A stretch of DNA of 64,000 nucleotides from Bacillota bacterium (lineage in GTDB: Bacteria; Bacillota; Clostridia; Peptostreptococcales; Anaerovoracaceae). The stretch is taken from the NCBI GenBank assembly GCA_017442785.1, contig JAFRZB010000038.1, forward strand, positions 79,416-143,415, in the 5' to 3' direction. The position numbers and the translations under genes are program-made. This document shows positions 1,327 to 59,706 of the stretch, in pieces. The notes below the pieces were generated by a model. It ran no database searches, was not told the origin of the DNA, and worked only from the letters and a program-made list of their open reading frames with translations. Positions within the stretch are counted from its first letter, which is position 1. The number at the start of each line of letters is the position of its first letter.

Positions 1327-1413
1327 TGGTGCCGGCGGCGGGGGTCGAACCCGCACGGTATCGCTACCACGGGATTTTGAGTCCCGCGCGTCTGCCAGTT
1401 CCACCACGCCGGC
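1327..1413 (-). tRNA. tRNA-Leu (anticodon CAA), type II with long variable arm, encoded CCA
   Basis: The reverse complement reads GCCGGCG-TG-GTGGAACTGGCAGAC-GCGGGACTCAAAATCCCGT-GGTAGCGATACCGT-GCGGGTTCGACCCCCGC-CGCCGGC-ACCA. The acceptor stem is 7 bp, the T-arm is GCGGG/TTCGACC/CCCGC, and the anticodon loop CTCAAAA gives CAA. Confidence 0.93.
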
Positions 1414-4913: not shown

Positions 4914-6234
4914 CGAAAGCAACCGATACGAGCTTACCGAGCTGGCGAAGATGTTCGTCCCCGTGGAGGAGTTGGACCTGTTCGCACAGAGCCCGGAGGC
5001 TTTTTGCGTACCTGACGCAGCCTCGGCAGACAGGAACGCCCAGAAAAGGGCGCTGTACCGCTTTCTCTCCGAAAAGACCGGGCGGGAACTTGACTGGGGC
5101 ATACTTACAGGCGTAAGGCCTCTAAAGCTCTTTTACGCAGCTGTAAGGCGCACCGGAAGTCCCGATGCCGCAGAAAAGCTGATGGCTTCGGAGTATCTCC
5201 TGAGCCGCTGCAAGGCGGAGCTTCTGAGAAATACCTGGGATACTCAGCAGACTCTCAAGGTGTCTGCAGACAGCAGAGCAACAGGTCTTTACATTGGGAT
5301 CCCTTTCTGCCCCACGAGATGCCTGTACTGCTCCTTTACATCCAATAAATACAGCGCCGATAAGGCAGACGCGTACCTTAAGGCACTGCGTAAGGAGATA
5401 GACGCTGTCGCGGGGATGATGGAGGACAGAGGGCTCTTTGCGGAGTCCGTATACATAGGCGGAGGCACTCCGACGTCGCTTTCTGAAGCACAGTTCGAGG
5501 AACTCGTATGCACCGTCTCCGATGCCTTCAGAAGGCCCGAAACAGCCGAATTCACGGCAGAATGCGGCAGACCCGATACGATCACCGCCGTAAAGCTTAA
5601 AACCCTTAAAAACGCCGGAGCAGGCCGCATAAGCATAAACCCTCAGTCCATGCAGCAGAAGACTCTGGACAGGATAGGAAGGCAGCATACACCGGAAGAG
5701 ATCATCGAGGCCTTCGGTCTTGCAAGGAGAAGCGGCATAGAGCAGATAAACATGGACCTTATAGCAGGGCTTCCCGGCGAAGACAGAGAAGACTTCAGGG
5801 ACACGCTCGATAAGATATGCGCGCTCGGTCCGGAGAACGTTACCGTCCATACCCTGGCGGTAAAGAAGGGCTCAAGGCTGATAGAGCAGGATAAAGACTA
5901 CTCCTACAGGCAGGGAGACGCGGTAAAGGAAATGGTTGAGGATGCCGCCGCGATACTCGGAGGCAGGGGATACGCTCCGTACTACCTCTACAGGCAGAAG
6001 CATATGACAGGAAACCTGGAGAACGTAGGATACTGCCTTCCCGGGACCGCAAGCGTCTACAACGTAAGGATAATGCAGGAGGACCAGACCATACTGGCTC
6101 TGGGAGCAGGAGGCGTATCAAAGCTCTATTACCCGGCGGAAGACAGGATAGAAAGAGTCGCCAACGTCTCCAATTACGAGATATACATCGACAGGATAGA
6201 TGAAATGATAAGAAGAAAGGAAGCAGCGTTATGA
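4870..6234 (+). CDS. hemZ: HemN/HemZ-like oxygen-independent coproporphyrinogen oxidase family radical SAM protein
   Basis: GIPFCPTRCLYCSF is a CxxxCxxC radical SAM motif preceded by a roughly 130-aa N-terminal domain. The coordinates give the ORF limits. A more likely start is TTG 4891, which has AAGGTG 8 nt upstream and reduces the overlap with the MBL gene. Confidence 0.8.
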   Translation: MKKGAIPLLEISISDESNRYELTELAKMFVPVEELDLFAQSPEAFCVPDAASADRNAQKRALYRFLSEKTGRELDWGILTGVRPLKLFYAAVRRTGSPDAAEKLMASEYLLSRCKAELLRNTWDTQQTLKVSADSRATGLYIGIPFCPTRCLYCSFTSNKYSADKADAYLKALRKEIDAVAGMMEDRGLFAESVYIGGGTPTSLSEAQFEELVCTVSDAFRRPETAEFTAECGRPDTITAVKLKTLKNAGAGRISINPQSMQQKTLDRIGRQHTPEEIIEAFGLARRSGIEQINMDLIAGLPGEDREDFRDTLDKICALGPENVTVHTLAVKKGSRLIEQDKDYSYRQGDAVKEMVEDAAAILGGRGYAPYYLYRQKHMTGNLENVGYCLPGTASVYNVRIMQEDQTILALGAGGVSKLYYPAEDRIERVANVSNYEIYIDRIDEMIRRKEAAL

Positions 6235-10723: not shown

Positions 10724-13225
10724 ATGAAAGACCGTTACGATTTTAAGGCCATAGAGGAAAAGTGGCAGAAGATATGGGAAGACACGGACGCCTTCCACGT
10801 CACAGAAGATCCTGACAAAGAGAAGTATTACTGCCTTGAGATGTTCCCGTATCCGAGCGGAAAGATACACATGGGGCATGTACGCAACTACTCCATAGCG
10901 GACGTCGTTGCAAGGTTCAAGACCATGAAGGGCTACAACGTCCTTCACCCGATAGGCTTCGACTCCTTCGGTCTTCCTGCCGAGAACGCCGCTATACAGC
11001 ACGGCATACACCCGGCCGTATGGACCAGCTCAAATATAAAGGAGATGGAGACAGAGCTCAAGCGCTGCGGCTTCTCCTATGACTGGGACAGGACCGTCTA
11101 CACATACACCGAGGAATACTACAAGTGGATGCAGTGGATATTCATCCAGTTCTGGAAGAAGGGTCTTGCTTATAAGAAAGAGAACCCCGTTAACTGGTGC
11201 CCGTCCTGCGCTACGGTGCTCGCCAACGAGCAGGTGGTGGACGGAAAGTGCGAGCGCTGCAAGACAGAGGTCACCAAGAAGGACCTCTCACAGTGGTATC
11301 TTAAGATAACCGCGTACGCCGACAGGCTCCTGGACGACCTTGAGAAAATGCCCGGCTGGCCCGAGAAGGTCAAGACCATGCAGAAGAACTGGATAGGCCG
11401 CTCCGAAGGCACAGAGCTCGACTTCGACATAGTAGGATCCGAAAAGAAGCTTCGTGTATTCACCACCCGCGTGGACACTGTATTCGGCACGACCTTCATG
11501 GTAATGAGCCCCGAGCATCCCATGCTGCACGAGCTCGTCTGCGGCACGGAGTACGAAGCCGCCGTCGAGGAATACTCCGAGCAGGTAAAGCACCTCTCCG
11601 ACATTGAGAGGACTTCCACAAGCAAGGAGAAGACAGGCGTATTCATCGGGCGCTACGCCATGAACCCGCTCACTCACAAAAAGATGCCCATATACATCTC
11701 CGACTACGTCCTGATCTCCTACGGTACAGGCGCGGTAATGGGTGTTCCGGCACACGACCAGAGAGACTTCGACTTCGCAAAGAAGTTCGGTCTTGAGATA
11801 ATCCCGGTAGTAGATCCCGGCAGGGAAGACGTGGATGTAAACAACCTGACAGCCGCGTTCGAGGCAGAAGGCAAGATGATCAACTCCGGCAAGTACGACG
11901 GCATGGATAATAAGGACGCCATCATCGCAATAAGGGACGACCTCAAGGCGATAGGGCTCGGAGAAGCAGTTACTAATTACAGGCTCCGCGACTGGCTCAT
12001 ATCCCGCCAGAGATACTGGGGCTGCCCGATCCCGATGATATACTGCGAGGACTGCGGATGGGTGCCCGAAAAGGAAGAGAACCTTCCCGTTCTTCTGCCG
12101 ACAGACGTTGAATTTACCGGCAAGGGCGAATCTCCGGTAGCAACGTCCAAGACCTTCGTCGACACGGTCTGCCCGATCTGCGGCAAGCCCGCCAAGAGGG
12201 AAGTGGACACCATGGACACCTTCCTGGATTCCTCCTGGTACTTCCTGCGCTACTGCGACGCAAGGAACGACAAGGCTCCGTTCGATCCGGCAAAGGCTTC
12301 TTACTGGATGCCAGTAGACCAGTACATAGGCGGAGTTGAGCACGCTATCCTCCACCTGATGTACGCAAGGTTCTTCACCATGGTACTCCACGATCTCGGC
12401 ATGGTCGAGATGGACGAGCCGTTCACCAACCTGCTTACCCAGGGCATGGTGCTCAAGGGATACAACGACGCAGAGGGCAACTGGATAGTAGGCAAGATGA
12501 GCAAGTCCGTAGGCAACGTCGTAAGCCCCGAGGAGATAATACAGAAGTACGGCGCGGACACCGCAAGGCTGTTCATACTGTTTGCGGCTCCTCCGGAAAG
12601 AGAGCTCGAATGGTCCGACGCGGGCGCGGAAGGAGCCTACAGGTTCCTCGGAAGGGTATACCGCCTGATATACGATCTGGCTCAGGATACCAACGGACTC
12701 CCGGCAGTATACAAGACTGAGACCAGGGACGATAAGCAGCTGGCTTACATTTTAAACAATACGATAAAGAGAGTTACCGACGATATAGAGAAGCGTTTCA
12801 ACTTCAATACGGCCATAAGCGCCGTAATGGAGCTCGTAAACGAGATGTACAGATATAAGGAGCTCGACGACGTCAACATGGGTCTGATGCGCCACGCCGC
12901 CGAAAGCGTAGTCCTGCTGCTCTCACCGTTCGTTCCTCACATCTGCGAGGAGCTCTGGGAGGGCCTCGGAAACAGCGAGTCCCTTTACAGACACCCCTGG
13001 CCGGAGTACGACGAGGACGCTCTTGTAAAGGACATGCAGGAGATAGTCGTTCAGATAAACGGCAAGGTGCGCGAGAGGATGGAGGTCCCCAGCGGCCTTG
13101 GAAGAGACGAGCTCTTAGCTTACTGCCTGGAGCAGGATGCCGTAAAGGCGCTCATGGAGGGCAAGGACGTCGTTAAGACCATAGCCGTGCCCGGAAAGCT
13201 CCTCAATATCGTCGTGAAAGGATAA
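10724..13225 (+). CDS. leuS: Leucine--tRNA ligase
   Basis: 833 aa with [16 protein letters not shown] (HIGH motif), KMSKSVGN (KMSKS motif) and a CP1 editing domain. Confidence 0.96.
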
Positions 13226-26005: not shown

Positions 26006-27798
26006 GATATCCTCAGATAGAAGCACTGGCCTCTGATGTTGCCGACAAGATAGCTGCCGGAGAAGTAGTAGAAAGGCCTCTTTCCATAGTTAAGGAGCTC
26101 CTGGAGAACTCCATAGACGCAGGAGCGACATCCATAACCGTTGAAACATCAAAGGGCGGCAAGGAATACATAAGAGTTACCGACAACGGCTGCGGCATCC
26201 CCAAGGGCCAGCTGGAGCTGGCCTTCATGCGCTATGCCACCAGCAAGCTGAGGACTGCCGAGGACCTTTCCGCGGTAGACACTCTCGGGTTCAGGGGCGA
26301 GGCACTTGCTTCGATAGCATCAGTCTCCAGGACGGAGCTGATATCAAGACCGGCCTCGGAAAAGCTCGGTGCAAGGATAAGCATAGCCGCATCAAGCATC
26401 CTTTCCATCGAAGACGCGGCCTGCGAGGACGGGACTACCATAATAGTCCGGGATCTTTTCTTCAATGTTCCCGCAAGGCTCAAGTTCCTTAAGCCGGACA
26501 ACACCGAAGCCGCGCTCATAACCGATTACGTATCCAAGATGGCCATTGCATATCCGGCAGTCCGCATTCGCCTCATATCCAACGGCACCACTCTGTTCTC
26601 AAGCCCGGGCAAGGGCTCGCTGAAGCACGCCTTAATGACCGTATACAGTCCCAAGATGTGCGAAAAGCTCCTGGAGCTCGCAAGAGAAGAGGACGGGATG
26701 CGGCTTACGGGCTACATATCTTCTCCCACATATTTCGAGAGGAACAGAAGGCGCCAGATATTCTTCGTAAACGGAAGGCTGATAAAGAGCAAGCTCCTTG
26801 AGAATGCGGTTGCACGAGCCTACAGCGACAAGCTGTTCGATGGGCAGTACCCCGCGGTCTTCCTGTTTCTGAACATCGACCCGTCCGAGCTGGACGTCAA
26901 CATACACCCGCACAAGACCGAAGTCAGGTTCTATCAGGAAGGACCTGTGAGCGATTTCATCGTAAGCGCAATAAGAAGGACTCTTCTGGATCCAAGATCT
27001 CTTGAGCTTAAAGCGCCTTCTTATGAGGCTCCCGTGCCTGAGGTCAGAGAAGTCCGCGCGGCGGCCGAAGAAGTCGAGAAGGTCTACCTCTTTGAGCCTG
27101 AGATAAAGGAGGAGCATCCGGAGCCTTCCGCAGCAGCATCCTTCTTCAGCGCCCAGCGCGCGCAGCAGACCGAAAAAGAAGTCCAGGTCCAGGAGGAGAT
27201 CTTCGAATACAACACCGACAAAAGGCTCATATTCGCTTCCCTTGAATACATAGGCGAGATATTCTCGACTTATCTTCTGTTCAAGGACGACAGCGGGCTG
27301 TACATCATGGACCAGCACGCAGCGCACGAGCGTGTCATGTACGAGAAGCTTCTCAAGGGCTTTAATTCCGAGGAGAACGCTTCCCAGCAGCTGCTTGTTC
27401 CGATGATCAAGGAGCTCGGCATCTCCGAGGTCCAGGCATCAGCGGACGCTGCAGTACTTCTTAAGGATCTGGGCTTTGAGATAAGGGAGTTCGGGCCAAC
27501 TGCCTACGCAGTCAGCGCCGTTCCGGGCTTCATGGACCTTGCTGAGGCCGAGAGCTTCATAGATGAGTTCTTCAGCGCAAGCAGCGAAGGACGGAGCGTC
27601 CAGGCCCGCAGGGATCAGATCACCTTGAGGGCCTGCAAGTCCGCAGTAAAGGCCCATGATAAGCTTTCCGTAAGCGAGATAAGGCGGCTTCTGCTGGACC
27701 TGGACCGCTGCGAGAATCCTTTCTCCTGTCCGCACGGAAGACCGGTGTTCCTCAAGTACTCCGAATACGAGCTCGAAAGGCTCTTCAAGCGTAAATGA
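26002..27798 (+). CDS. mutL: DNA mismatch repair protein MutL
   Basis: 598 aa with the GHKL ATPase motifs (IAAGEVVERP.S.VKEL.ENS.DAGA, DNG.GI, TLGFRGEAL) and a C-terminal dimerisation domain with DQHAAHERV and ACKSAVKA. Confidence 0.95.
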   Translation: MRYPQIEALASDVADKIAAGEVVERPLSIVKELLENSIDAGATSITVETSKGGKEYIRVTDNGCGIPKGQLELAFMRYATSKLRTAEDLSAVDTLGFRGEALASIASVSRTELISRPASEKLGARISIAASSILSIEDAACEDGTTIIVRDLFFNVPARLKFLKPDNTEAALITDYVSKMAIAYPAVRIRLISNGTTLFSSPGKGSLKHALMTVYSPKMCEKLLELAREEDGMRLTGYISSPTYFERNRRRQIFFVNGRLIKSKLLENAVARAYSDKLFDGQYPAVFLFLNIDPSELDVNIHPHKTEVRFYQEGPVSDFIVSAIRRTLLDPRSLELKAPSYEAPVPEVREVRAAAEEVEKVYLFEPEIKEEHPEPSAAASFFSAQRAQQTEKEVQVQEEIFEYNTDKRLIFASLEYIGEIFSTYLLFKDDSGLYIMDQHAAHERVMYEKLLKGFNSEENASQQLLVPMIKELGISEVQASADAAVLLKDLGFEIREFGPTAYAVSAVPGFMDLAEAESFIDEFFSASSEGRSVQARRDQITLRACKSAVKAHDKLSVSEIRRLLLDLDRCENPFSCPHGRPVFLKYSEYELERLFKRK

Positions 27799-28685
27799 TA
27801 AGGACATATTTCGTCGTGGGGCCTACGGCCTCCGGTAAAACCGAATATGCCATAAGACTCGCCGAAGACATAGGCGGCGAGATAGTCTCCGCGGATTCCA
27901 TGCAGATATACAAATACATGGACATAGGAAGCGCAAAACCTTCCGCAGACGAGCTCGCAAAAGTAAAGCATCATCTTATAGGCGAGATAGACCCCAAGCA
28001 GCCTTTTAACGTGTCGGATTATCAGAAACTCGCCCTGGAATACATCCGGAGGATAGCCTCAGAGGGCAAGGTGCCAGTGGTATGCGGAGGCACAGGCCTG
28101 TACATCAACTCTCTGGTCTATAAGATGGATTTTTCCGCCCCCGAAGGAGATGACGCTTTCCGCCAAAGGATATTCAGGGAAGAAGACGGAGATACGGAAA
28201 GGCTCCATGAAAGGCTAAGAAGGCTGGATCCGGACGCAGCCGAAGCGATACATCCCAACAATGTAAAGCGCGTGCTGCGGGCCATAGAAAGGCTTGAGAA
28301 AGGGGAGGGGAAGCTTGCGGAATTCGCGGCTGCCACAGAGCCTTCGGATGTCATAGAGCCACTGATGCTGGGCATGGACGTTGAGCGGAGCGTCCTTTAC
28401 GACAGGATAAACAGAAGGGTAGACCTGATGCTGCAAAATGGCCTTGCGGAAGAGGTAAATAGTCTCATGGACATGGGCTTTACGTCCTCAGATGTTGCAA
28501 TGAAAGGCATAGGCTACAAGGAGATAATAGACGCCGTAAACAGAGGGGAAGCTCCCGAAAGCGCCGCTGAGACGATAAAGCTCAACACAAGGCACTACGC
28601 CAGAAGGCAGATGATATGGCTGCGCAGATATCCTCAGATAAAGTGGGTATCTCCGGAATATGATTCCGAAAAAATTGCATTTTAG
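27795..28685 (+). CDS. miaA: tRNA dimethylallyltransferase
   Basis: 296 aa; GPTASGKT P-loop, SADSMQIYK.MDIGSAKP, and GGTGLY. Confidence 0.94.
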   Translation: MIRTYFVVGPTASGKTEYAIRLAEDIGGEIVSADSMQIYKYMDIGSAKPSADELAKVKHHLIGEIDPKQPFNVSDYQKLALEYIRRIASEGKVPVVCGGTGLYINSLVYKMDFSAPEGDDAFRQRIFREEDGDTERLHERLRRLDPDAAEAIHPNNVKRVLRAIERLEKGEGKLAEFAAATEPSDVIEPLMLGMDVERSVLYDRINRRVDLMLQNGLAEEVNSLMDMGFTSSDVAMKGIGYKEIIDAVNRGEAPESAAETIKLNTRHYARRQMIWLRRYPQIKWVSPEYDSEKIAF

Positions 28686-28689
28686 GAAT
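28663..28689 (+). repeat. dif-like recombinase core site, copy A (10-7-10): ATTCCGAAAA-AATTGCA-TTTTAGGAAT
   Basis: Inverted arms ATTCCGAAAA / ATTCCTAAAA (rc). The right arm is identical and the left arm 9/10 identical to the site at 31836-31861. It overlaps the miaA stop codon and the -35 of the recombinase promoter. Confidence 0.5.
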
Positions 28690-28703
28690 AGTTGTGGTAA
28701 TAT
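28675..28703 (+). promoter_or_regulatory. Putative sigma-A promoter of the recombinase gene; predicted leaderless transcript
   Basis: TTGCAT (28675-28680), 17-nt spacer, and an extended -10 TGGTAATAT (28695-28703). The recombinase ATG at 28710 is 7 nt past the -10, and no Shine-Dalgarno lies in between. Confidence 0.5.
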
Positions 28704-28709
28704 GCTAGT

Positions 28710-29849
28710 ATGGCAGATAAAACAGTAAGACTTCACAACAAGAGCGATAAGCCGGACAATGTGGTGGAACGCGAGAACGACGTCCTGGACCGCTGCGAGG
28801 CCATAGAGGCCCAGCTGCCGAGCTGGCTGCGGGGCTTTTTCATGTACCTTAAAACAGGTGTGCTTCCCATGACAAGGCTCTCATATCTAAGCGACGTAAA
28901 GTTCTTCTTCAGCTATCTGATAAACGAGACAGAGCTTAAGGAGCGCTGCGATGATATCAGAAAGATACAGCCTGAGGACCTGGATAAAATAAAATCCGTG
29001 GACGTCAACATCTTCATCGACTACTGCAGAAGATACAAGAAAAAGGACAGCGAGGGCAACACCGTCGTATACGAGAACAGCAACAGCGCGCTCTCGCACA
29101 AGAAATCTTCCGTGTCCGTTCTTTTCAAATACCTCTACAGGGACGGCTTCGTAAGCACCAACATCACCGACGGTTTCGACCCCATAAGGATGCCCAAGGC
29201 CGGAGAGCGCGAGATCAAGGCCCTTCAGGACAACGAGGTAATGGTGATGCTTGACGCAGTTACGGAAGGCACGGGACTTACGCCTCACGAGCTGCATTAC
29301 TGGGAAAAGACCAGATACAGGGACAAGCTTATACTGCTGCTGCTTGTTACCTACGGTCTGAGACTTTCGGAGCTGCAGCAGCTGAACATTTCGTCCTTCA
29401 ACTTCGACAGAGGCGAGTTCAAGATATACAGAAAGCGCGGAAAAGAGTCCATAATGCCTATAAACAGGACCATAACCGACGCGTTCTCGGATTATGTTAA
29501 TAAGGAAAGGCCTTCGGAGGACCAGCTGGACGACGCCAACAAGGACGCGCTGCTGCTGTCCCTTCAGGGAGCAAGGCTTACCGACAGGCAGATAAGACAG
29601 ATAGTAAAGAAGTACACATCAATAAGCCTCGGTACAAGCCGGGAGATGGGCTACAGCCCGCATAAGCTTAGAGCCACCGCAGCAACGTCCCTCATTGCAA
29701 GGGGCAATTCCATCTACGACGTTCAGGAGCTCCTGGACCACGACAACGTTACCACTACGCAGCTCTACGCTGCTCACAAGCTCAATACAAAGCGCGAGCT
29801 CATTAAAAACTTCGAATGGGGAGAGGATCTAAAAAAAGAAGATGAATGA
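28710..29849 (+). CDS. Tyrosine site-specific recombinase, Xer family (XerS/XerC-like)
   Basis: 379 aa with the full catalytic set: GLRLSE (Arg), KRGKES (Lys), HKLRAT (His-x-x-Arg), LLDHDN (His) and TQLYAA (Tyr). The N-terminal SAM-like core-binding domain is present (SWLRGFFMYL...LSYLSDVKFFFSYL). Confidence 0.88.
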   Translation: MADKTVRLHNKSDKPDNVVERENDVLDRCEAIEAQLPSWLRGFFMYLKTGVLPMTRLSYLSDVKFFFSYLINETELKERCDDIRKIQPEDLDKIKSVDVNIFIDYCRRYKKKDSEGNTVVYENSNSALSHKKSSVSVLFKYLYRDGFVSTNITDGFDPIRMPKAGEREIKALQDNEVMVMLDAVTEGTGLTPHELHYWEKTRYRDKLILLLLVTYGLRLSELQQLNISSFNFDRGEFKIYRKRGKESIMPINRTITDAFSDYVNKERPSEDQLDDANKDALLLSLQGARLTDRQIRQIVKKYTSISLGTSREMGYSPHKLRATAATSLIARGNSIYDVQELLDHDNVTTTQLYAAHKLNTKRELIKNFEWGEDLKKEDE

Positions 29850-31134
29850 CATTACAGTAAAAATATTATGTGAACAATTCCATATAGACAAGGATATCCT
29901 TGACATGGTAGAGACTGCCGAGGCTCAGCTTGCAGACGAGTTCAGGAAGACGGACGAGATCTGCGAATACAATCAGTACAGAGTCCTAAACGCCTTCCAG
30001 AAGAACAGGATCTCCGACATGCACTTCGGATGGACCACCGGCTACGGCTACGACGACCTCGGAAGAGCTGCCATCGAAAAGGTATACGCTTCTGTCTTCG
30101 GAGCCGAGGCTGCCATTGTCCGCACGCAGATAGTAAACGGCACACATGCTCTCGCGAGCGTCTATCTCGGGCTTTTAAGGGCCGGAGACGAGCTGATATA
30201 CTGCAGCGGAACACCTTATGACACCATGAAGACCGTTATAGGTCTTGATCCCGACAACCAGTCACCGGGAAACCTTAAGGAATACGGCATAATATACAAA
30301 CAGGTAGACCTTACGGATGATAATGAAGTTGATCTTGAAGCCGTAAAGGCCGCCATAGGCCCAAGGACAAAGATAGCCGCGCTGCAGAGGTCCACAGGCT
30401 ATTCCTTCAGAAAAGCCTTCTCCACAGACCGCATAAAGGCCTGGATTGACGCCTGCAAGTCCGTAAAGCCGGATATCATATGCATGGTGGACAACTGCTA
30501 CGGCGAATTCACCGATTATTACGACCCAATAGAGCTCGGAGCGGACATAATGGCAGGTTCTCTGATAAAGAACCCGGGCGGCGGGCTTGCACTCTCCGGC
30601 GGATACATTGCCGGCAGAAAAGATCTAATAGACAGGATCTACTACCGTGTGACATGCCCCGGGATAGGCGGAGAATGCGGCCTTACATTCGGCCAGACGA
30701 GGACGATGATGGAGGGTCTTTTCATAGCCCCCAGAGTTACCGCAGGCGCAGTAAAGGGCGCCAAGCTGTGTGCTAAGGTCTACGAGAACCTCGGATACGA
30801 GACTTGCCCGAAGTCCACGGACAAGAGGTCCGATATCATAGAGGCCGTTGTCCTGGGAAGCGCTGAAAAGGTGGAAGCCTTCTGCAAGGGCGTCCAGCAG
30901 GCCGCTCCCGTGGATTCCTTCGTTACACCTGAATACGGAGACATGGCCGGATATAAGGACAAGATAATAATGGCCGCCGGCGCCTTCGTACAGGGATCCT
31001 CAATAGAGCTCTCCGCGGACGGTCCAATGAGAGAGCCGTACATAGTTTATTTCCAGGGCGGGATAACCTACGAACACTCCAAATTCGGAGTCATAAAGAG
31101 CCTGCAGAGCCTCAGGAGCAGGGGACTTCTCTGA
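29842..31134 (+). CDS. YnbB/aluminium-resistance family PLP-dependent (Cys/Met-metabolism-like) protein
   Basis: 430 aa; N-terminal E..C..NQ.RVL.AF...RISD.HF..TTGYGYDD.GR and IVNGTHA are typical of the family. The start overlaps the recombinase stop by 8 nt. Confidence 0.85.
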   Translation: MNDITVKILCEQFHIDKDILDMVETAEAQLADEFRKTDEICEYNQYRVLNAFQKNRISDMHFGWTTGYGYDDLGRAAIEKVYASVFGAEAAIVRTQIVNGTHALASVYLGLLRAGDELIYCSGTPYDTMKTVIGLDPDNQSPGNLKEYGIIYKQVDLTDDNEVDLEAVKAAIGPRTKIAALQRSTGYSFRKAFSTDRIKAWIDACKSVKPDIICMVDNCYGEFTDYYDPIELGADIMAGSLIKNPGGGLALSGGYIAGRKDLIDRIYYRVTCPGIGGECGLTFGQTRTMMEGLFIAPRVTAGAVKGAKLCAKVYENLGYETCPKSTDKRSDIIEAVVLGSAEKVEAFCKGVQQAAPVDSFVTPEYGDMAGYKDKIIMAAGAFVQGSSIELSADGPMREPYIVYFQGGITYEHSKFGVIKSLQSLRSRGLL

Positions 31135-31293: not shown

Positions 31294-31322
31294 TTGACAG
31301 ACAAACATTTGTTCTGTATAAT
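31294..31322 (+). promoter_or_regulatory. Consensus sigma-A promoter of the LysM (YneA-like) gene
   Basis: TTGACA (31294-31299), exactly 17 nt, TATAAT (31317-31322). Confidence 0.8.
31303..31314. promoter_or_regulatory. LexA-like box 2, AAACATTTGTTC (one mismatch)
   Basis: Lies inside the -35/-10 spacer. Matches GAAC-N4-GTTC at 11 of the 12 positions when the N4 is counted. Confidence 0.55.
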
Positions 31323-31352: not shown

Positions 31353-31643
31353 ATGAGACATTACAGAATAAAGAACAAATTCAGATTCATAACTTTCATG
31401 ATAATAGCCGTTCTGATTGCATCCATGTCCATCGGAGCGCTTTTCCCGGTAAGAGCTCTGGATAAGGCTCCCAAGTACACAGAGGTCAAGGTCAAGGACG
31501 GAGATACGCTCTGGTCACTGGCAAAGGCATACGGTGATCCGTCAAGAGACATCAGAGAGAGCATCTATGAGATCTGCAGGATAAACGACATCACTGCGGA
31601 GACCTTATACGCCGGTGCAGTCATCAGGATACCTAAGTATTAA
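31353..31643 (+). CDS. Small membrane-anchored LysM protein, YneA-like candidate SOS cell-division inhibitor
   Basis: The start was moved to ATG 31353 (AGGAGG 7 nt upstream). It is 96 aa: basic N-terminus, one TM (FITFMIIAVLIASMSIGALF), then a LysM domain (YTEVKVKDGDTLWSLAKAY...ICRINDI..ETLYAGAVIRIP). Confidence 0.8.
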   Translation: MRHYRIKNKFRFITFMIIAVLIASMSIGALFPVRALDKAPKYTEVKVKDGDTLWSLAKAYGDPSRDIRESIYEICRINDITAETLYAGAVIRIPKY

Positions 31644-31706
31644 TCGATATATCAAAATACCGTTTTTAGAACTTGAAACAGAAGGATATAAGTATCGACC
31701 GCATTT

Positions 31707-31736
31707 AAAAAAATCGCTCAAATCGGCGATTTTTTT
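31707..31736. terminator. Bidirectional rho-independent terminator
   Basis: AAAAAAATCGC (31707-31717) pairs with GCGATTTTTTT (31726-31736) around an 8-nt loop. The A-run and T-run allow termination in both directions. Confidence 0.65.
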
Positions 31737-31826
31737 AATGAATAAATAGTTGAAACTACATGAATATGACATAATTAGATTACGGTCACTCACGTAGAGC
31801 AAAAGGTCCCCCGGGGCGCTTTTTCG

Positions 31827-31870
31827 TATATAACTATTCCCAAAATTGATATTTTAGGAATAGTTATATA
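31827..31870. repeat. 44-bp near-perfect palindrome with dif-like 10-6-10 core (copy B)
   Basis: TATATAACTATTCCCAAAA-TTGATA-TTTTAGGAATAGTTATATA has 19-nt arms with a single C/T mismatch. The core ATTCCCAAAA/TTGATA/TTTTAGGAAT is at 31836-31861. It lies in the AT-rich gap where gene orientation switches from + to -. Confidence 0.6.
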
Positions 31871-31918: not shown

Positions 31919-32248
31919 TCAGGAGCCTTGCTTTATTATTTCTTTTAAAACTATCCCGTACTCTTCCAGGTCCACTCTGTAGTTGACGACGTAAACGCCA
32001 TCAGCCAAAAGCCTGCGTCTTTGTTCGTCCTTGCCGCCGAAGCCGAATGCTGCCGCAAGGCGCCCGTCCGAATTTACCACTCTGTGGCAGTGAACATTTG
32101 TTTCATCTGGATTTCTGTGCAGAGCGTTGCCGACGGCTCTTGCGGCCCGCGGATGTCCGCAGAGCTCCGCTATCTGTCCGTATGTGGCCACCCTTCCCTC
32201 GGGGATCTTTTTTAACACCTCGTATACGTCTCTTTCGAACTCAGTCAT
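31919..32248 (-). CDS. MGMT-family protein (O6-alkylguanine-DNA alkyltransferase C-terminal domain only)
   Basis: 109 aa; IPEGRVATYGQIAELCGHPRAARAVGNALHRNP......HCHRVVNSDG. The helix-turn-helix and the active-site-like CHRV are present. Confidence 0.82.
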   Translation of the reverse strand: MTEFERDVYEVLKKIPEGRVATYGQIAELCGHPRAARAVGNALHRNPDETNVHCHRVVNSDGRLAAAFGFGGKDEQRRRLLADGVYVVNYRVDLEEYGIVLKEIIKQGS

Positions 32249-32924
32249 AAACGGGACCTTCTATAATGCTTCCTATATCCAAAAGCGGCTTTCCGGGCAC
32301 AGATCTTATCCCGAGTCCGCAGCTTGTTATCATTTTCCTTATGCTCTCATAGTCCGGATGAGCGCTTATGTCACCGTTGAACCAGATGTCATCGCCTATG
32401 CGTCCGCAGCAGCCTCCTATAAAGCCTCTGTCGTAGCCGGGCAGCTCTACATGGCCCGGTCTTATAAGAAGGACTTCGGGTACGTACAAGGGATCCGAAG
32501 CCCCGGCCGCCATAAGCGCCCGCGCTATGCCTTCATCCTCTGTGATGAAATGGCTGTCATCCACAGGTATAATATTGCATTTTGTGTATCCCTGCTTAAC
32601 ATCTATGATCATCAGATCAGGAAAGAGCTCTTCTGCCGCGCGGACAAGCTCCCTGCTTACAGTCTTTTTGCTGCATATCATGAACTTTTCGGTGACGACA
32701 GCGTTATACAGGACGTCGGCTGGATAAACAGGCCCCAGCAGGCTCTCATCTCCCTTGAAAACAGGCGTTTTCGGCGCTGTTCCGAGCTTGCACATGAATA
32801 TGTCCGGATGCATGGAAATACCTTGCGAAACGGCCCGTGAGGGGCTTAAAACGCGTATCTTAAAGCCCTCGGACGCAAGCGCGGACGTCAGTTCTTCATA
32901 TGCAAGCCCGGAGATGTATATCAT
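32241..32924 (-). CDS. Hypothetical protein (about 227 aa), conserved-looking, function unknown
   Basis: The protein-like translation starts MIYISGLAYEELTSALASEGFKIRVL. Notable motifs are MHPDIFMC, KQGYTKCN and GFIGGCCGRIGD. The start was moved to ATG 32924, 4 nt after the upstream stop. ATGACTGA overlap with the MGMT gene. Confidence 0.6.
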   Translation of the reverse strand: MIYISGLAYEELTSALASEGFKIRVLSPSRAVSQGISMHPDIFMCKLGTAPKTPVFKGDESLLGPVYPADVLYNAVVTEKFMICSKKTVSRELVRAAEELFPDLMIIDVKQGYTKCNIIPVDDSHFITEDEGIARALMAAGASDPLYVPEVLLIRPGHVELPGYDRGFIGGCCGRIGDDIWFNGDISAHPDYESIRKMITSCGLGIRSVPGKPLLDIGSIIEGPVYD

Positions 32925-32928
32925 TTCG

Positions 32929-34461
32929 TTATTTTGCCCCGTTCTTATCTGCAGCAATGGTCTCTGCAGCAATGTAGCCCCAGGTAAGCGCCCTTCCGTG
33001 GCTGTTTCCGAGTATCGTAGTTACATACTCATGTCCGTACAGACCGCCTGTGGTGTCGCCTACTGCAAACAATCCTGCCACAGGCTGCCTGTTCTTATCA
33101 AGAGCGCGCATGGAGCAGTCTATGGAGACTCCTCCTACTACCTCCAGCAGAGCGGTACCTATCTTTACCGCAATGAACGGCCCCTTTTCCAGCGGATAGA
33201 GCAGTTCTTTCCTCTTTCCGAACTGAGTATCTCTTCCTTCTTTGCAGAACTCATTGTACTGAGCGAAGGTCTTAAGGAAGCCTTCCTTATCGACTTCCAT
33301 CTTGTCCGCAAGCTCTTCTATAGTATCCGCCTTTACGGCATGTCCTTCATTAAGAGCTCTTTCGACAGAAACATAGCTGGATTCGATAGTCTTTGGATCT
33401 CCGTAGCGAAGTCCGGCGTTGCCCCAGAATATTCCTCCGCCGTATTTAAGGCTGTCCTGAACGTTTTCGGCGTAATCACCTGCCAGAATGCTGTAGCAGT
33501 AGCCGTCGGGCTGGCGCATTATTGAGGTTGCCCTTCCCTGAACGTAGGAGTCCTCGTTCATGAAGCGCTTTCCGTACTTGTTTACAAAGAGGAAGAAATA
33601 ATTGCACCAGGCATAGTGCTGCGGGTGCATCATCAGCGGGAATACCTCCTCGGCCATAGCCGCACCTGCCCAAAGAGCCATCTTGTGTCCGTCGCCGGTG
33701 TTGCAGCCCACCGGTATGTACTGGCTGGCGAGAGTCCTAAGAGCGTCGGGAGCATAAGCCCTGCACATCTCCTCGTCTCCGCCTATGTCTCCGGTAGCAA
33801 GGACGACTCCGTATTTTGCGTCTATCCTGATAATGCCGTTCTCACCCTTCGCATAGGCTCCGCAGACCCTGCCGGAAGCATCCTTAATAAGCTGCGTAAC
33901 AGGCGTCTTAAAGCGGCATTCGATGCCCATCTTCTGAGCGTAATTGTAGAGCGCCTTGGGCACATAGCTTCCCCTGATGTTCCCCTTGGGCGGGAAGGAA
34001 TGCGCACCGTAGAACTCCCTGTACGGGGCTATAGGATATATGCAGTCCACCAGCCTCGGAGCCAGTCCGTCCGCCACGGTTATCGGAAGGAGCCAGTCCA
34101 TGGCTTCCTTAGACCTTTTCAGGAAGGTCCAGAGAAGCTCCTGATCTATGTCGTTTCCGCTCATCACTATCCACTGGCGGGCTACCTCCTCAAGGTCGTT
34201 CTTAAGGCCGTATTCCACCATGAGAGATGAGTTCGGAACGCCGAAATGACCGCCTCTTCCGGAGTACGACCCGCTCTTTTCAAGCACCAGAGGCGTGACA
34301 CCAAGCTCTTTGAGCCTGCAGGCGGCGGAAAGGCCGCCCAGGCCAGCGCCTACAACAAGAGCCTCACATTCAAGAGTCTCGGCTACCTTGCTCTCATCCG
34401 GAGCATCAGGGACTATCTGAAAGCTCCACTTTGCCTTGTCCTTTTCCGCTGCTTCGTACAT
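32929..34461 (-). CDS. FAD-dependent oxidoreductase (fumarate reductase/3-ketosteroid dehydrogenase-like flavoprotein family)
   Basis: Dinucleotide fold ALVVGAGLGGLSAACRLKELG..P.VLEK and C-terminal GLFAVGDTTGG. The start was moved to ATG 34461, which has AGGAGG 8 nt upstream. Confidence 0.85.
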   Translation of the reverse strand: MYEAAEKDKAKWSFQIVPDAPDESKVAETLECEALVVGAGLGGLSAACRLKELGVTPLVLEKSGSYSGRGGHFGVPNSSLMVEYGLKNDLEEVARQWIVMSGNDIDQELLWTFLKRSKEAMDWLLPITVADGLAPRLVDCIYPIAPYREFYGAHSFPPKGNIRGSYVPKALYNYAQKMGIECRFKTPVTQLIKDASGRVCGAYAKGENGIIRIDAKYGVVLATGDIGGDEEMCRAYAPDALRTLASQYIPVGCNTGDGHKMALWAGAAMAEEVFPLMMHPQHYAWCNYFFLFVNKYGKRFMNEDSYVQGRATSIMRQPDGYCYSILAGDYAENVQDSLKYGGGIFWGNAGLRYGDPKTIESSYVSVERALNEGHAVKADTIEELADKMEVDKEGFLKTFAQYNEFCKEGRDTQFGKRKELLYPLEKGPFIAVKIGTALLEVVGGVSIDCSMRALDKNRQPVAGLFAVGDTTGGLYGHEYVTTILGNSHGRALTWGYIAAETIAADKNGAK

Positions 34462-53985: not shown

Positions 53986-54078
53986 GCGATCTGAAGTTCA
54001 GCTGCTCCAAAGTACAGACTGATCAGGCCGGATGTATCCATCAGGAGCCGGGTTACGGATGTAACAGTGAGACCGAAG

Positions 54079-54125
54079 CGCTCACGGGACAGAATAGACG
54101 CTGTTCCGTGAGCGGTTTTATTTCC
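54079..54125 (+). terminator. Rho-independent terminator after asd
   Basis: CGCTCACGGGACAG (54079-54092) pairs with CTGTTCCGTGAGCG (54101-54114), 14 bp with one G-U pair, then GTTTTATTT. Confidence 0.75.
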
Positions 54126-59500: not shown

Positions 59501-59706
59501 GGCTGTTTTCTCTAATAAAAAATCCCAAAATGCCGTTGGGCTATAATTCACGCCCTATCAAGAGATAGGTGGGATGCCTGCGCTCCGTCTTCTGTCTTCC
59601 ACTGATCTTATGAGGCCTGACATAACGGCGGATCTGACATACGGCTTCCCTTAAATGAACTGTAGGTTGAATTAACGCCCTGACGAACATCTCAGGATAT
59701 AAAAGT

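Follow-up and report, generated by a model that had tools for sequence, protein, structure and literature searches.

A putative dif-derived operator at the promoter of an XerS-related recombinase gene near the replication terminus of an Anaerovoracaceae-type bacterium

Introduction

Why should the gene for a Xer-type recombinase carry, across its own promoter, a partial copy of the site at which its product is expected to recombine the chromosome? The question is raised by a 64,000-nucleotide (nt) stretch of contig JAFRZB010000038.1, hereafter the window, from an uncultured bacterium of Anaerovoracaceae type (Peptostreptococcales); the replication terminus lies within it. The gene concerned, xer (28710..29849, plus strand), encodes a tyrosine recombinase of 379 amino acids with the Pfam domain Phage_integrase. 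The partial copy, site A, lies immediately upstream of xer, and a more complete sequence of the same kind, site B, lies 2 kb beyond its end. The known single-recombinase Xer systems are those of XerS, XerH, XerA and XerL. We propose that site A is an operator derived from dif, the chromosomal recombination site, set on a leaderless promoter through which the recombinase would repress its own gene, and that it does not serve as a site of recombination; we would give this reading a probability a little above one half (about 0.55).

Two copies of a dif arm in the window

Site A has the form ATTCCGAAAA-AATTGCA-TTTTAGGAAT (28663-28689) and site B the form ATTCCCAAAA-TTGATA-TTTTAGGAAT (31836-31861). 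A first-pass annotation of the window, made from the sequence alone, had reported that the two agree at 9 of 10 positions in the left arm and 10 of 10 in the right, and re-reading of the sequence bears this out. The identity of the right arms extends four bases beyond that core, the 14-mer TTTTAGGAATAGTT being present without mismatch at both 28680-28693 and 31852-31865. The pattern ATTCCNAAAA-N5-8-TTTTAGGAAT occurs exactly twice in the 64 kb, at sites A and B, against no occurrence in 100 shuffles, and a search for the 14-mer arm with up to two mismatches again finds only these two sites in the window, where 0.33 would be expected. They are direct repeats of the same polarity, 3.17 kb apart.

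The two arms of site A differ in quality. The promoter-proximal (right) arm (28680..28693, plus strand) matches the family-wide dif arm consensus at 14 of 14 positions. The distal (left) arm, TATGATTCCGAAAA (28659..28672, plus strand), is dif-like in its inner 10 nt and not in its outer 4 nt, and scores below 14 of a possible 25.7 bits with a weight matrix built from 150 dif arms. This arm lies within the final codons of miaA (27795..28685, plus strand), which encodes a tRNA dimethylallyltransferase, and the miaA stop codon (TAG, 28683-28685) falls inside the site, as had been pointed out, so that site A forms the end of the miaA reading frame. The centre, AATTGCA (28673..28679, plus strand), is 7 nt long, compared with 6 nt (TTGATA) in site B, and overlaps a -35-like hexamer, TTGCAT (28675-28680).

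This hexamer is followed, after 17 nt that include a TG at 28695-28696 and one further base, by TAATAT at 28698-28703 and then, 6 nt later, by the ATG at 28710. The extended -10 element, TGGTAATAT (28695..28703, plus strand), is the core of the predicted xer promoter. It had been described as near-consensus; the elements are where they were said to be, but they match TTGACA at only three of six positions and TATAAT at four of six, plus the TG. ATG 28710 is the only possible start of xer, since an in-frame TAA (28698-28700) stands upstream of it and no start codon is found between it and the conserved HNKSDKP block of the N-terminus. No Shine-Dalgarno (SD) sequence precedes this ATG, even for transcripts that might read through from miaA. 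The xer mRNA of the window is accordingly placed, as a prediction from the layout, among leaderless messages, beginning at or next to AUG 28710. Leaderless operons are common in a Firmicute, accounting for 9% in S. pneumoniae.

Site B as the chromosomal dif

Which of the two sites, then, is the one used for recombination? The window was compared with 80 genome loci and 53 metagenome loci that encode relatives of its recombinase, from Anaerovoracaceae and other Peptostreptococcales including Ihubacter, Anaerovorax, Mogibacterium, Emergencia and Lentihominibacter, most of them in metagenome-assembled genomes. Site B, in full AACTATTCCCAAAA-TTGATA-TTTTAGGAATAGTT with a 14-6-14 layout (31832..31865, plus strand), lies in the gap between convergent genes, 1,983 nt past the end of xer. 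Both the GC and the AT skew of the window switch sign near 31-32 kb; the cumulative G-C curve peaks at 31785 and the A-T curve at 31804, some 40 nt from site B. The long open reading frames change strand at this point as well, 18 plus and 5 minus lying to its left and 4 plus and 15 minus to its right.

Among the related loci the order mutS-mutL-miaA-xer-ynbB-(variable)-yneA-[site] is nearly universal, and most of those with enough flanking sequence have one site B-like sequence 2-7 kb downstream of xer. The consensus drawn from 71 unique versions of the site is AACTATTCC(C/G)AAAA-TTrtgA-TTTTAGGAATAGTT, again 14-6-14, with arms that differ at one position only. In the complete chromosome of Ihubacter sp. 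rT4E-8 (NZ_CP187532.1) the dif-like site is found at about 53% of the genome length. Site B is, on these sequence grounds, the chromosomal dif, because it lies at the skew switch, because the site after yneA is conserved, and because of its position near 53% in Ihubacter sp. rT4E-8; it has the attributes expected of a Xer/dif site in general, being unique, conserved, AT-rich, partly palindromic and intergenic at the change of skew. The near-perfect dyad of dif suggests that a single protein binds both arms. Site A had been taken as an instance of a dif site adjacent to its recombinase gene; that description does not hold, since the functional dif appears to be site B, 2 kb past the end of the gene.

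Three further features of this region may be recorded. The palindrome of the window's dif reaches arms of 20 nt that are 95% complementary (31827-31870). Between yneA and dif there is a perfect 13-nt AT-rich inverted repeat, TTAAAAAAATCGC/GCGATTTTTTTAA (31705-31738), which resembles a bidirectional terminator. Beyond dif (32241-32972, minus strand, in the window), a DUF6873 gene and a gene with an ogt-like methyltransferase domain recur in the window's closer relatives, so in these the synteny crosses the terminus.

Site A in related loci

Site A is confined to the window's own subclade. In most relatives there is no such site upstream of xer, and its start codon directly adjoins, or overlaps, the 3' end of miaA; the C-terminal tail of MiaA in the window is shorter than in those relatives in which miaA abuts xer. 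A survey of 114 loci with a usable xer upstream region found an SD-like motif in 81 and a -10 box 6-7 nt from the start codon in 10, with no locus having both; all 10 of the latter begin xer with ATG. About 23 of the 114 (L004-L009, L085-L095 and others, in our numbering of the loci) have neither motif, the start of xer abutting the coding end of miaA.

The loci with such a -10 box are essentially those of the window's own subclade, which after four additional look-ups comprises 13 loci (the window, L081, L134, L001, L082, L083, L129, L135, L002, L003, L084, L136 and L137), whose recombinases are 78-98% identical. They share a common layout of dif arm, 3-4 nt, (TGn)TAnnAT, 6-7 variable nt and ATG, with an upstream flank that is also variable. 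The -10 box, of the form TGnTAnnAT or TATAAT, stands 6-7 nt before the ATG in all 13, with no SD-like motif, so the arrangement that the first-pass annotation saw in the window recurs throughout the subclade, and the spacing, the AUG start and the missing SD-like motif are together those of a leaderless layout. In all 13, too, the arm occupies the same position, between the -35-like and -10 elements, where, as was supposed from the window, a bound protein would be expected to block RNA polymerase.

The two arms have fared very differently within the subclade. The proximal arm is intact in nine loci and altered in four. It is the perfect 14-mer in eight (the window, L081, L134, L135, L002, L003, L084 and L136) and in L137 it copies the other dif arm without mismatch; in the L001 group (L001, L082, L083 and L129) it carries a conserved 2-nt insertion, TTTTATCGGAATAGT. 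Of the distal arm only the inner part is retained in the window, L081 and L134, with a centre of 7 nt, and only the outer part in L135, with a centre of 8 nt. In the L001 group the distal arm reads TCTTCCGAAAA, beside a variable centre, and miaA reads through the entire site; in L002, L003, L084, L136 and L137 the distal arm is absent. The centre is 7, 6 or 8 nt long across the subclade and variable in sequence. Loss of the distal arm coincides with an insertion between miaA and xer, either a minus-strand LysR gene or cassette (L002, L003, L084 and L137) or another gene (L136).

A closer comparison is offered by L081, whose recombinase is 98% identical to that of the window. Across site A the two loci are identical at 35 of 35 positions, while in the stretch from the arm to the ATG about 8 of 15 positions differ and there is an indel. 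When the arm matrix was run over the 133 loci and the window (1.31 Mb), perfect arm 14-mers outside dif were found only at xer promoters, which also account for 17 of the 32 matches of at least 14 bits. Because one arm is strictly kept at a fixed distance from the -10 box while the other arm and the centre decay freely, we prefer to regard site A as an operator half-site, not as another core of dif; it is a derived feature of one subclade.

Two groups of observations concern individual loci. The LysR insertions (922-5887 in L002, 3307-4272 in L084, 631-1602 in L137, and that of L003) stop precisely where the retained dif arm has its inner edge and are transcribed divergently from the xer promoter; in L002 two LysR genes flank a flavin adenine dinucleotide (FAD) oxidoreductase and a transporter. 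In L021, xer-ynbB is found upstream of miaA and is preceded by an ireB-like gene and a terminator. Here TTTTAGGAATAATT stands 2 nt before the xer ATG and another arm that is nearly perfect, TTTTAGGAATAGAT, some 150 nt ahead of dif, the two being at 5977-5990 and 11364-11377. The arm at the L021 start may be an independent case; its AGGA could be a plain SD sequence, and the spacing does not suit a leaderless start.

The recombinase

The recombinase had been described as XerS-like. Over the whole protein the NCBIfam profiles give 138.6 bits for XerS, 138.7 for XerA, 125 for XerC and 123 for XerD, each far below its curated cut-off; the XerS equivalog (NF003462) has a cut-off of 267 bits. The likeness to XerS resides in the N-terminal domain, the first 170 residues matching only the XerS profile in NCBIfam (residues 24-143 against profile positions 5-121; E = 2.5e-13). 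When the search is split by domain, the catalytic part proves to be of a generic Xer kind, with XerA, XerC and XerD all scoring above XerS. The earlier description is therefore sound for the N-terminal domain and fails for the protein as a whole. Residues R218, K242, H318, R321, H344 and Y353 align with the catalytic residues of XerD and are invariant in 14 homologues.

A predicted structure (predicted local distance difference test score, pLDDT, 73) finds XerD, XerA and XerH as its best matches in a fold search of the PDB, which indicates a Xer-type fold within which the three are not separable. Similarity to XerH does not extend over the whole length, only residues 198-355 aligning to 5jjv (E = 4.9e-8). 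As to its setting, xer is embedded in the core-gene synteny of the related loci and not in a mobile element, and no second tyrosine recombinase was found in the 64-kb window. We conclude from the profile scores that the protein represents an unnamed XerS-related Xer family, and not XerS by the curated criterion, because its N-terminal domain matches XerS only and yet the whole protein falls below every Xer cut-off.

Operator, relic or recombination site

How might these features work together? Chromosome dimers would be resolved at site B by the recombinase encoded 2 kb to its left. Over most of the family, where xer comes straight after miaA and usually has an SD-like motif before it, the gene is probably co-transcribed with mutS, mutL and miaA. 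In the subclade a dif copy joined to a promoter would have taken the place of the miaA-xer junction, uncoupling xer from miaA, and transcription from this new promoter would begin at or next to the AUG to give a leaderless xer mRNA. The dif arm would then lie at about -30 to -17 from the predicted start, where a bound recombinase monomer would exclude RNA polymerase, and the recombinase would thereby repress its own synthesis in a negative feedback. Site A would no longer be a working partner of dif, because its centre differs in length and sequence from that of site B and its distal arm is degenerate, altered or lost. Recombination between A and B would delete xer itself, and the differing centres should block it; in tyrosine recombinase systems, central regions of different length or sequence block strand exchange.

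Several points tell against this proposal. The window's own hexamers are weak, and a generic promoter scan of the window did not list the putative xer promoter, the case for which is one made by the relatives and not by the quality of these hexamers. A terminator scan of the window found none between miaA and xer, so read-through transcripts from miaA are possible. The 2-nt insertion in the proximal arm of the L001 group would shift the inner contacts and may weaken binding. In a distant relative (L062, 66% identity; 5960-6003) the sequence TGTTATAAT is followed by 6 nt and then the ATG, with no dif arm; this is apparently an independent origin of a leaderless-type xer promoter, and since it has no arm, an arm is not required for such a promoter. 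Finally, it is conceivable that the block is conserved for use by RNA polymerase or by some other protein.

Of the other explanations, the one that survives best is that site A is a relic with a promoter function only, an old duplicate of dif having supplied spacer and -35-region sequence to a promoter that the recombinase does not regulate. In its favour, several loci have a -35-like hexamer with a TTG just where the centre of site A lies, and the decay of the distal arm is plain; the arm-less promoter of L062 and the tolerance of an insertion in the L001 group also fit. Promoter spacers normally vary, however, whereas here the 14 nt of a dif arm are kept at 78-98% identity while the discriminator and the upstream flank change. 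Extended -10 promoters, moreover, need little upstream information, and the conserved block ends exactly at the boundary of the arm. We consider a mere relic unlikely.

It might instead be supposed that the arm is an accessory or landing site that recruits the recombinase near dif or modulates synapsis at site B, with no part in transcription. Plasmid Xer systems do use accessory sequences, and site A always lies within about 3-4 kb of dif and in the same orientation. The arm keeps a fixed place relative to the -10 box and ATG, at a spacing of 3-4 nt, and not relative to dif, and most of the family manages without it, which makes this role improbable.

Slightly less probable still is a second recombination site, whether for attachment of dif-integrating elements or for excision of xer-ynbB-yneA as a circle in a mobile xer/dif module: the direct repetition of A and B, the insertions in L002, L003, L084, L136 and L137, whose boundary coincides exactly with the proximal arm's inner edge, and the rearrangement in L021, with xer-ynbB upstream of miaA and a dif arm next to the ATG, are set against centres that differ between A and B and vary in length by lineage, a distal arm that is degenerate or absent, the core synteny of the intervening genes in over 100 loci devoid of site A, and the lack of a matching hybrid site at the left junction of the insertions. 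On the same grounds we reject an IMEX, that is, foreign DNA bounded by two dif-like sites, since the xer-ynbB-yneA core synteny holds in those loci. Nor is there support for the idea that a Xer recombinase inserted the LysR cassettes of L002, L003 and L084 at site A, a hybrid left-junction site having been sought and not found.

The operator proposal carries its own expectation, namely that the output of the xer promoter would respond to changes in GGAATAGT. A wider picture can be advanced tentatively, in which an XerS-related single-recombinase system with a 14-6-14 dif would resolve the chromosome dimers of Anaerovoracaceae, and one lineage would have split two roles that difSL has been suspected of uniting, dif recombining and its one-arm duplicate acting as operator on a newly evolved leaderless promoter.

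Comparison with known systems

The idea that a Xer recombinase regulates its own gene through its site is not new. Autoregulation of xerS via difSL was proposed by Le Bourgeois et al. 2007 (PMC1914069), and XerS binds the half-sites of difSL, one of them with high affinity (PMC1914069; Nolivos 2010, PMC2965235). The present system resembles XerS/difSL in having a long recombinase (379 amino acids, compared with 356), an N-terminal domain that matches the XerS profile only, a dif of the class with A-tract, spacer and T-tract, a recombinase gene near dif at the terminus, and a recombinase site before the gene, in the position of the proposed autoregulator of xerS. There is also likeness in sequence. 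As the first-pass annotation had suggested, the site shares TTCCGAAAAA with the L. lactis difSL, ATCTTTCCGAAAAACTGTAATTTTCTTGACA, and TTCCGAAAA(A) is common to the site here and the high-affinity left half of that difSL.

The differences are equally clear. With an XerS cut-off of 267 bits, the full-length protein reaches 138.6, and its catalytic domain is nearer to XerA, XerC and XerD. The dif described here is symmetric, 14-6-14, with another right arm, whereas difSL is an asymmetric site of 31 bp; the functional dif lies 2-7 kb downstream of the gene, whereas difSL is immediately upstream; and the site at the promoter is a separate, degenerate copy restricted to one subclade. The gene itself belongs to a mutS-mutL-miaA-xer-ynbB string and is not a separate module.

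With XerH/difH of Helicobacter and Campylobacter (Carnoy and Roten 2009, PMC2731167; Bebel 2016, PMC5241119) the system shares a recombinase of similar length and a near-palindromic dif with a 6-bp centre flanked by AAAA and TTTT, the difH consensus being TGAAAAC---A-TTTTCAAA. The xerH gene is often within tens to hundreds of bp of dif (PMC2731167; PMC5241119). The protein resembles XerH only weakly, however, and in its catalytic domain alone; the arm sequences differ, and no second, promoter-borne copy has been described for XerH/difH. XerL/dif of the Legionellales (PMC9765430), recognised only recently, is likewise a Xer system with one recombinase and a highly palindromic dif, but more than 400 kb separate xerL from dif, the XerL protein belongs to an unrelated family, and again no promoter-borne copy has been described. 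In the literature searched we found, as the first-pass annotation had expected, no description of a system of the XerS or XerH type in Clostridia or Anaerovoracaceae.

Transposons offer a parallel of another kind. TnpR/res of Tn3 and the tyrosine recombinase system TnpI/irs of Tn5401 regulate their own promoters through their sites (PMC7157771), and here, too, a predicted recombinase site overlaps the core promoter of its own gene. In those transposons one site does both jobs, whereas in the window the presumed operator, site A, stands apart from the recombination site, B, and has lost its recombination features, and the system appears to be a chromosomal housekeeping one rather than part of a transposon.

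What would follow if these readings are correct? There would be a new single-recombinase Xer family for widespread gut and rumen Clostridia, and the defined dif consensus would mark the replication terminus in metagenome-assembled genomes. XerS-type autoregulation via dif is a long-standing suggestion, of which we found no test in the literature searched; in XerS/difSL a single site would do both jobs, so mutating it also affects dimer resolution, and a presumed operator that stands apart from the recombination site, as here, would make the two roles separable for study. Site A would then illustrate, in nature, how a recombination site can become a binding site for a transcription factor and nothing else. 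The locus would, in addition, show a stepwise change of expression mode, from an xer abutting miaA, mostly with an SD-like motif, to one with its own leaderless promoter in the subclade.

Neighbouring genes and other features

Downstream of xer family-wide, and directly adjacent to it in most loci, lies a ynbB-like gene for a pyridoxal phosphate (PLP) enzyme of the Met_gamma_lyase family (29842..31134, plus strand). Its start overlaps the xer stop as ATGAATGA (29842-29849), and this overlap, together with the recurrence of the gene pair across the family, suggests translational coupling of the recombinase with the PLP enzyme.

The last gene before dif, in the window as in nearly all related loci, is yneA-like (31353..31643, plus strand) and encodes a LysM protein of the type of the SOS cell-division suppressor; it scores 56.3 bits with the NCBIfam YneA profile, whose cut-off is 60, and matches Pfam LysM. 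In front of it is a perfect sigma-70-type promoter, TTGACA-17-TATAAT (31294-31322), which is flanked and overlapped by three palindromes resembling LexA (Cheo) boxes, GAACAAATGTTC at 31273-84, AAACATTTGTTC at 31303-14 and GAACAATTGTTC at 31329-40.

A scan with Rfam gave no match at the xer/site A locus; elsewhere in the window, matches above the gathering score are a 6S RNA (59518-59701, minus strand), a NiCo riboswitch (54009-54094, plus strand) and a tRNA (1330-1413, minus strand).

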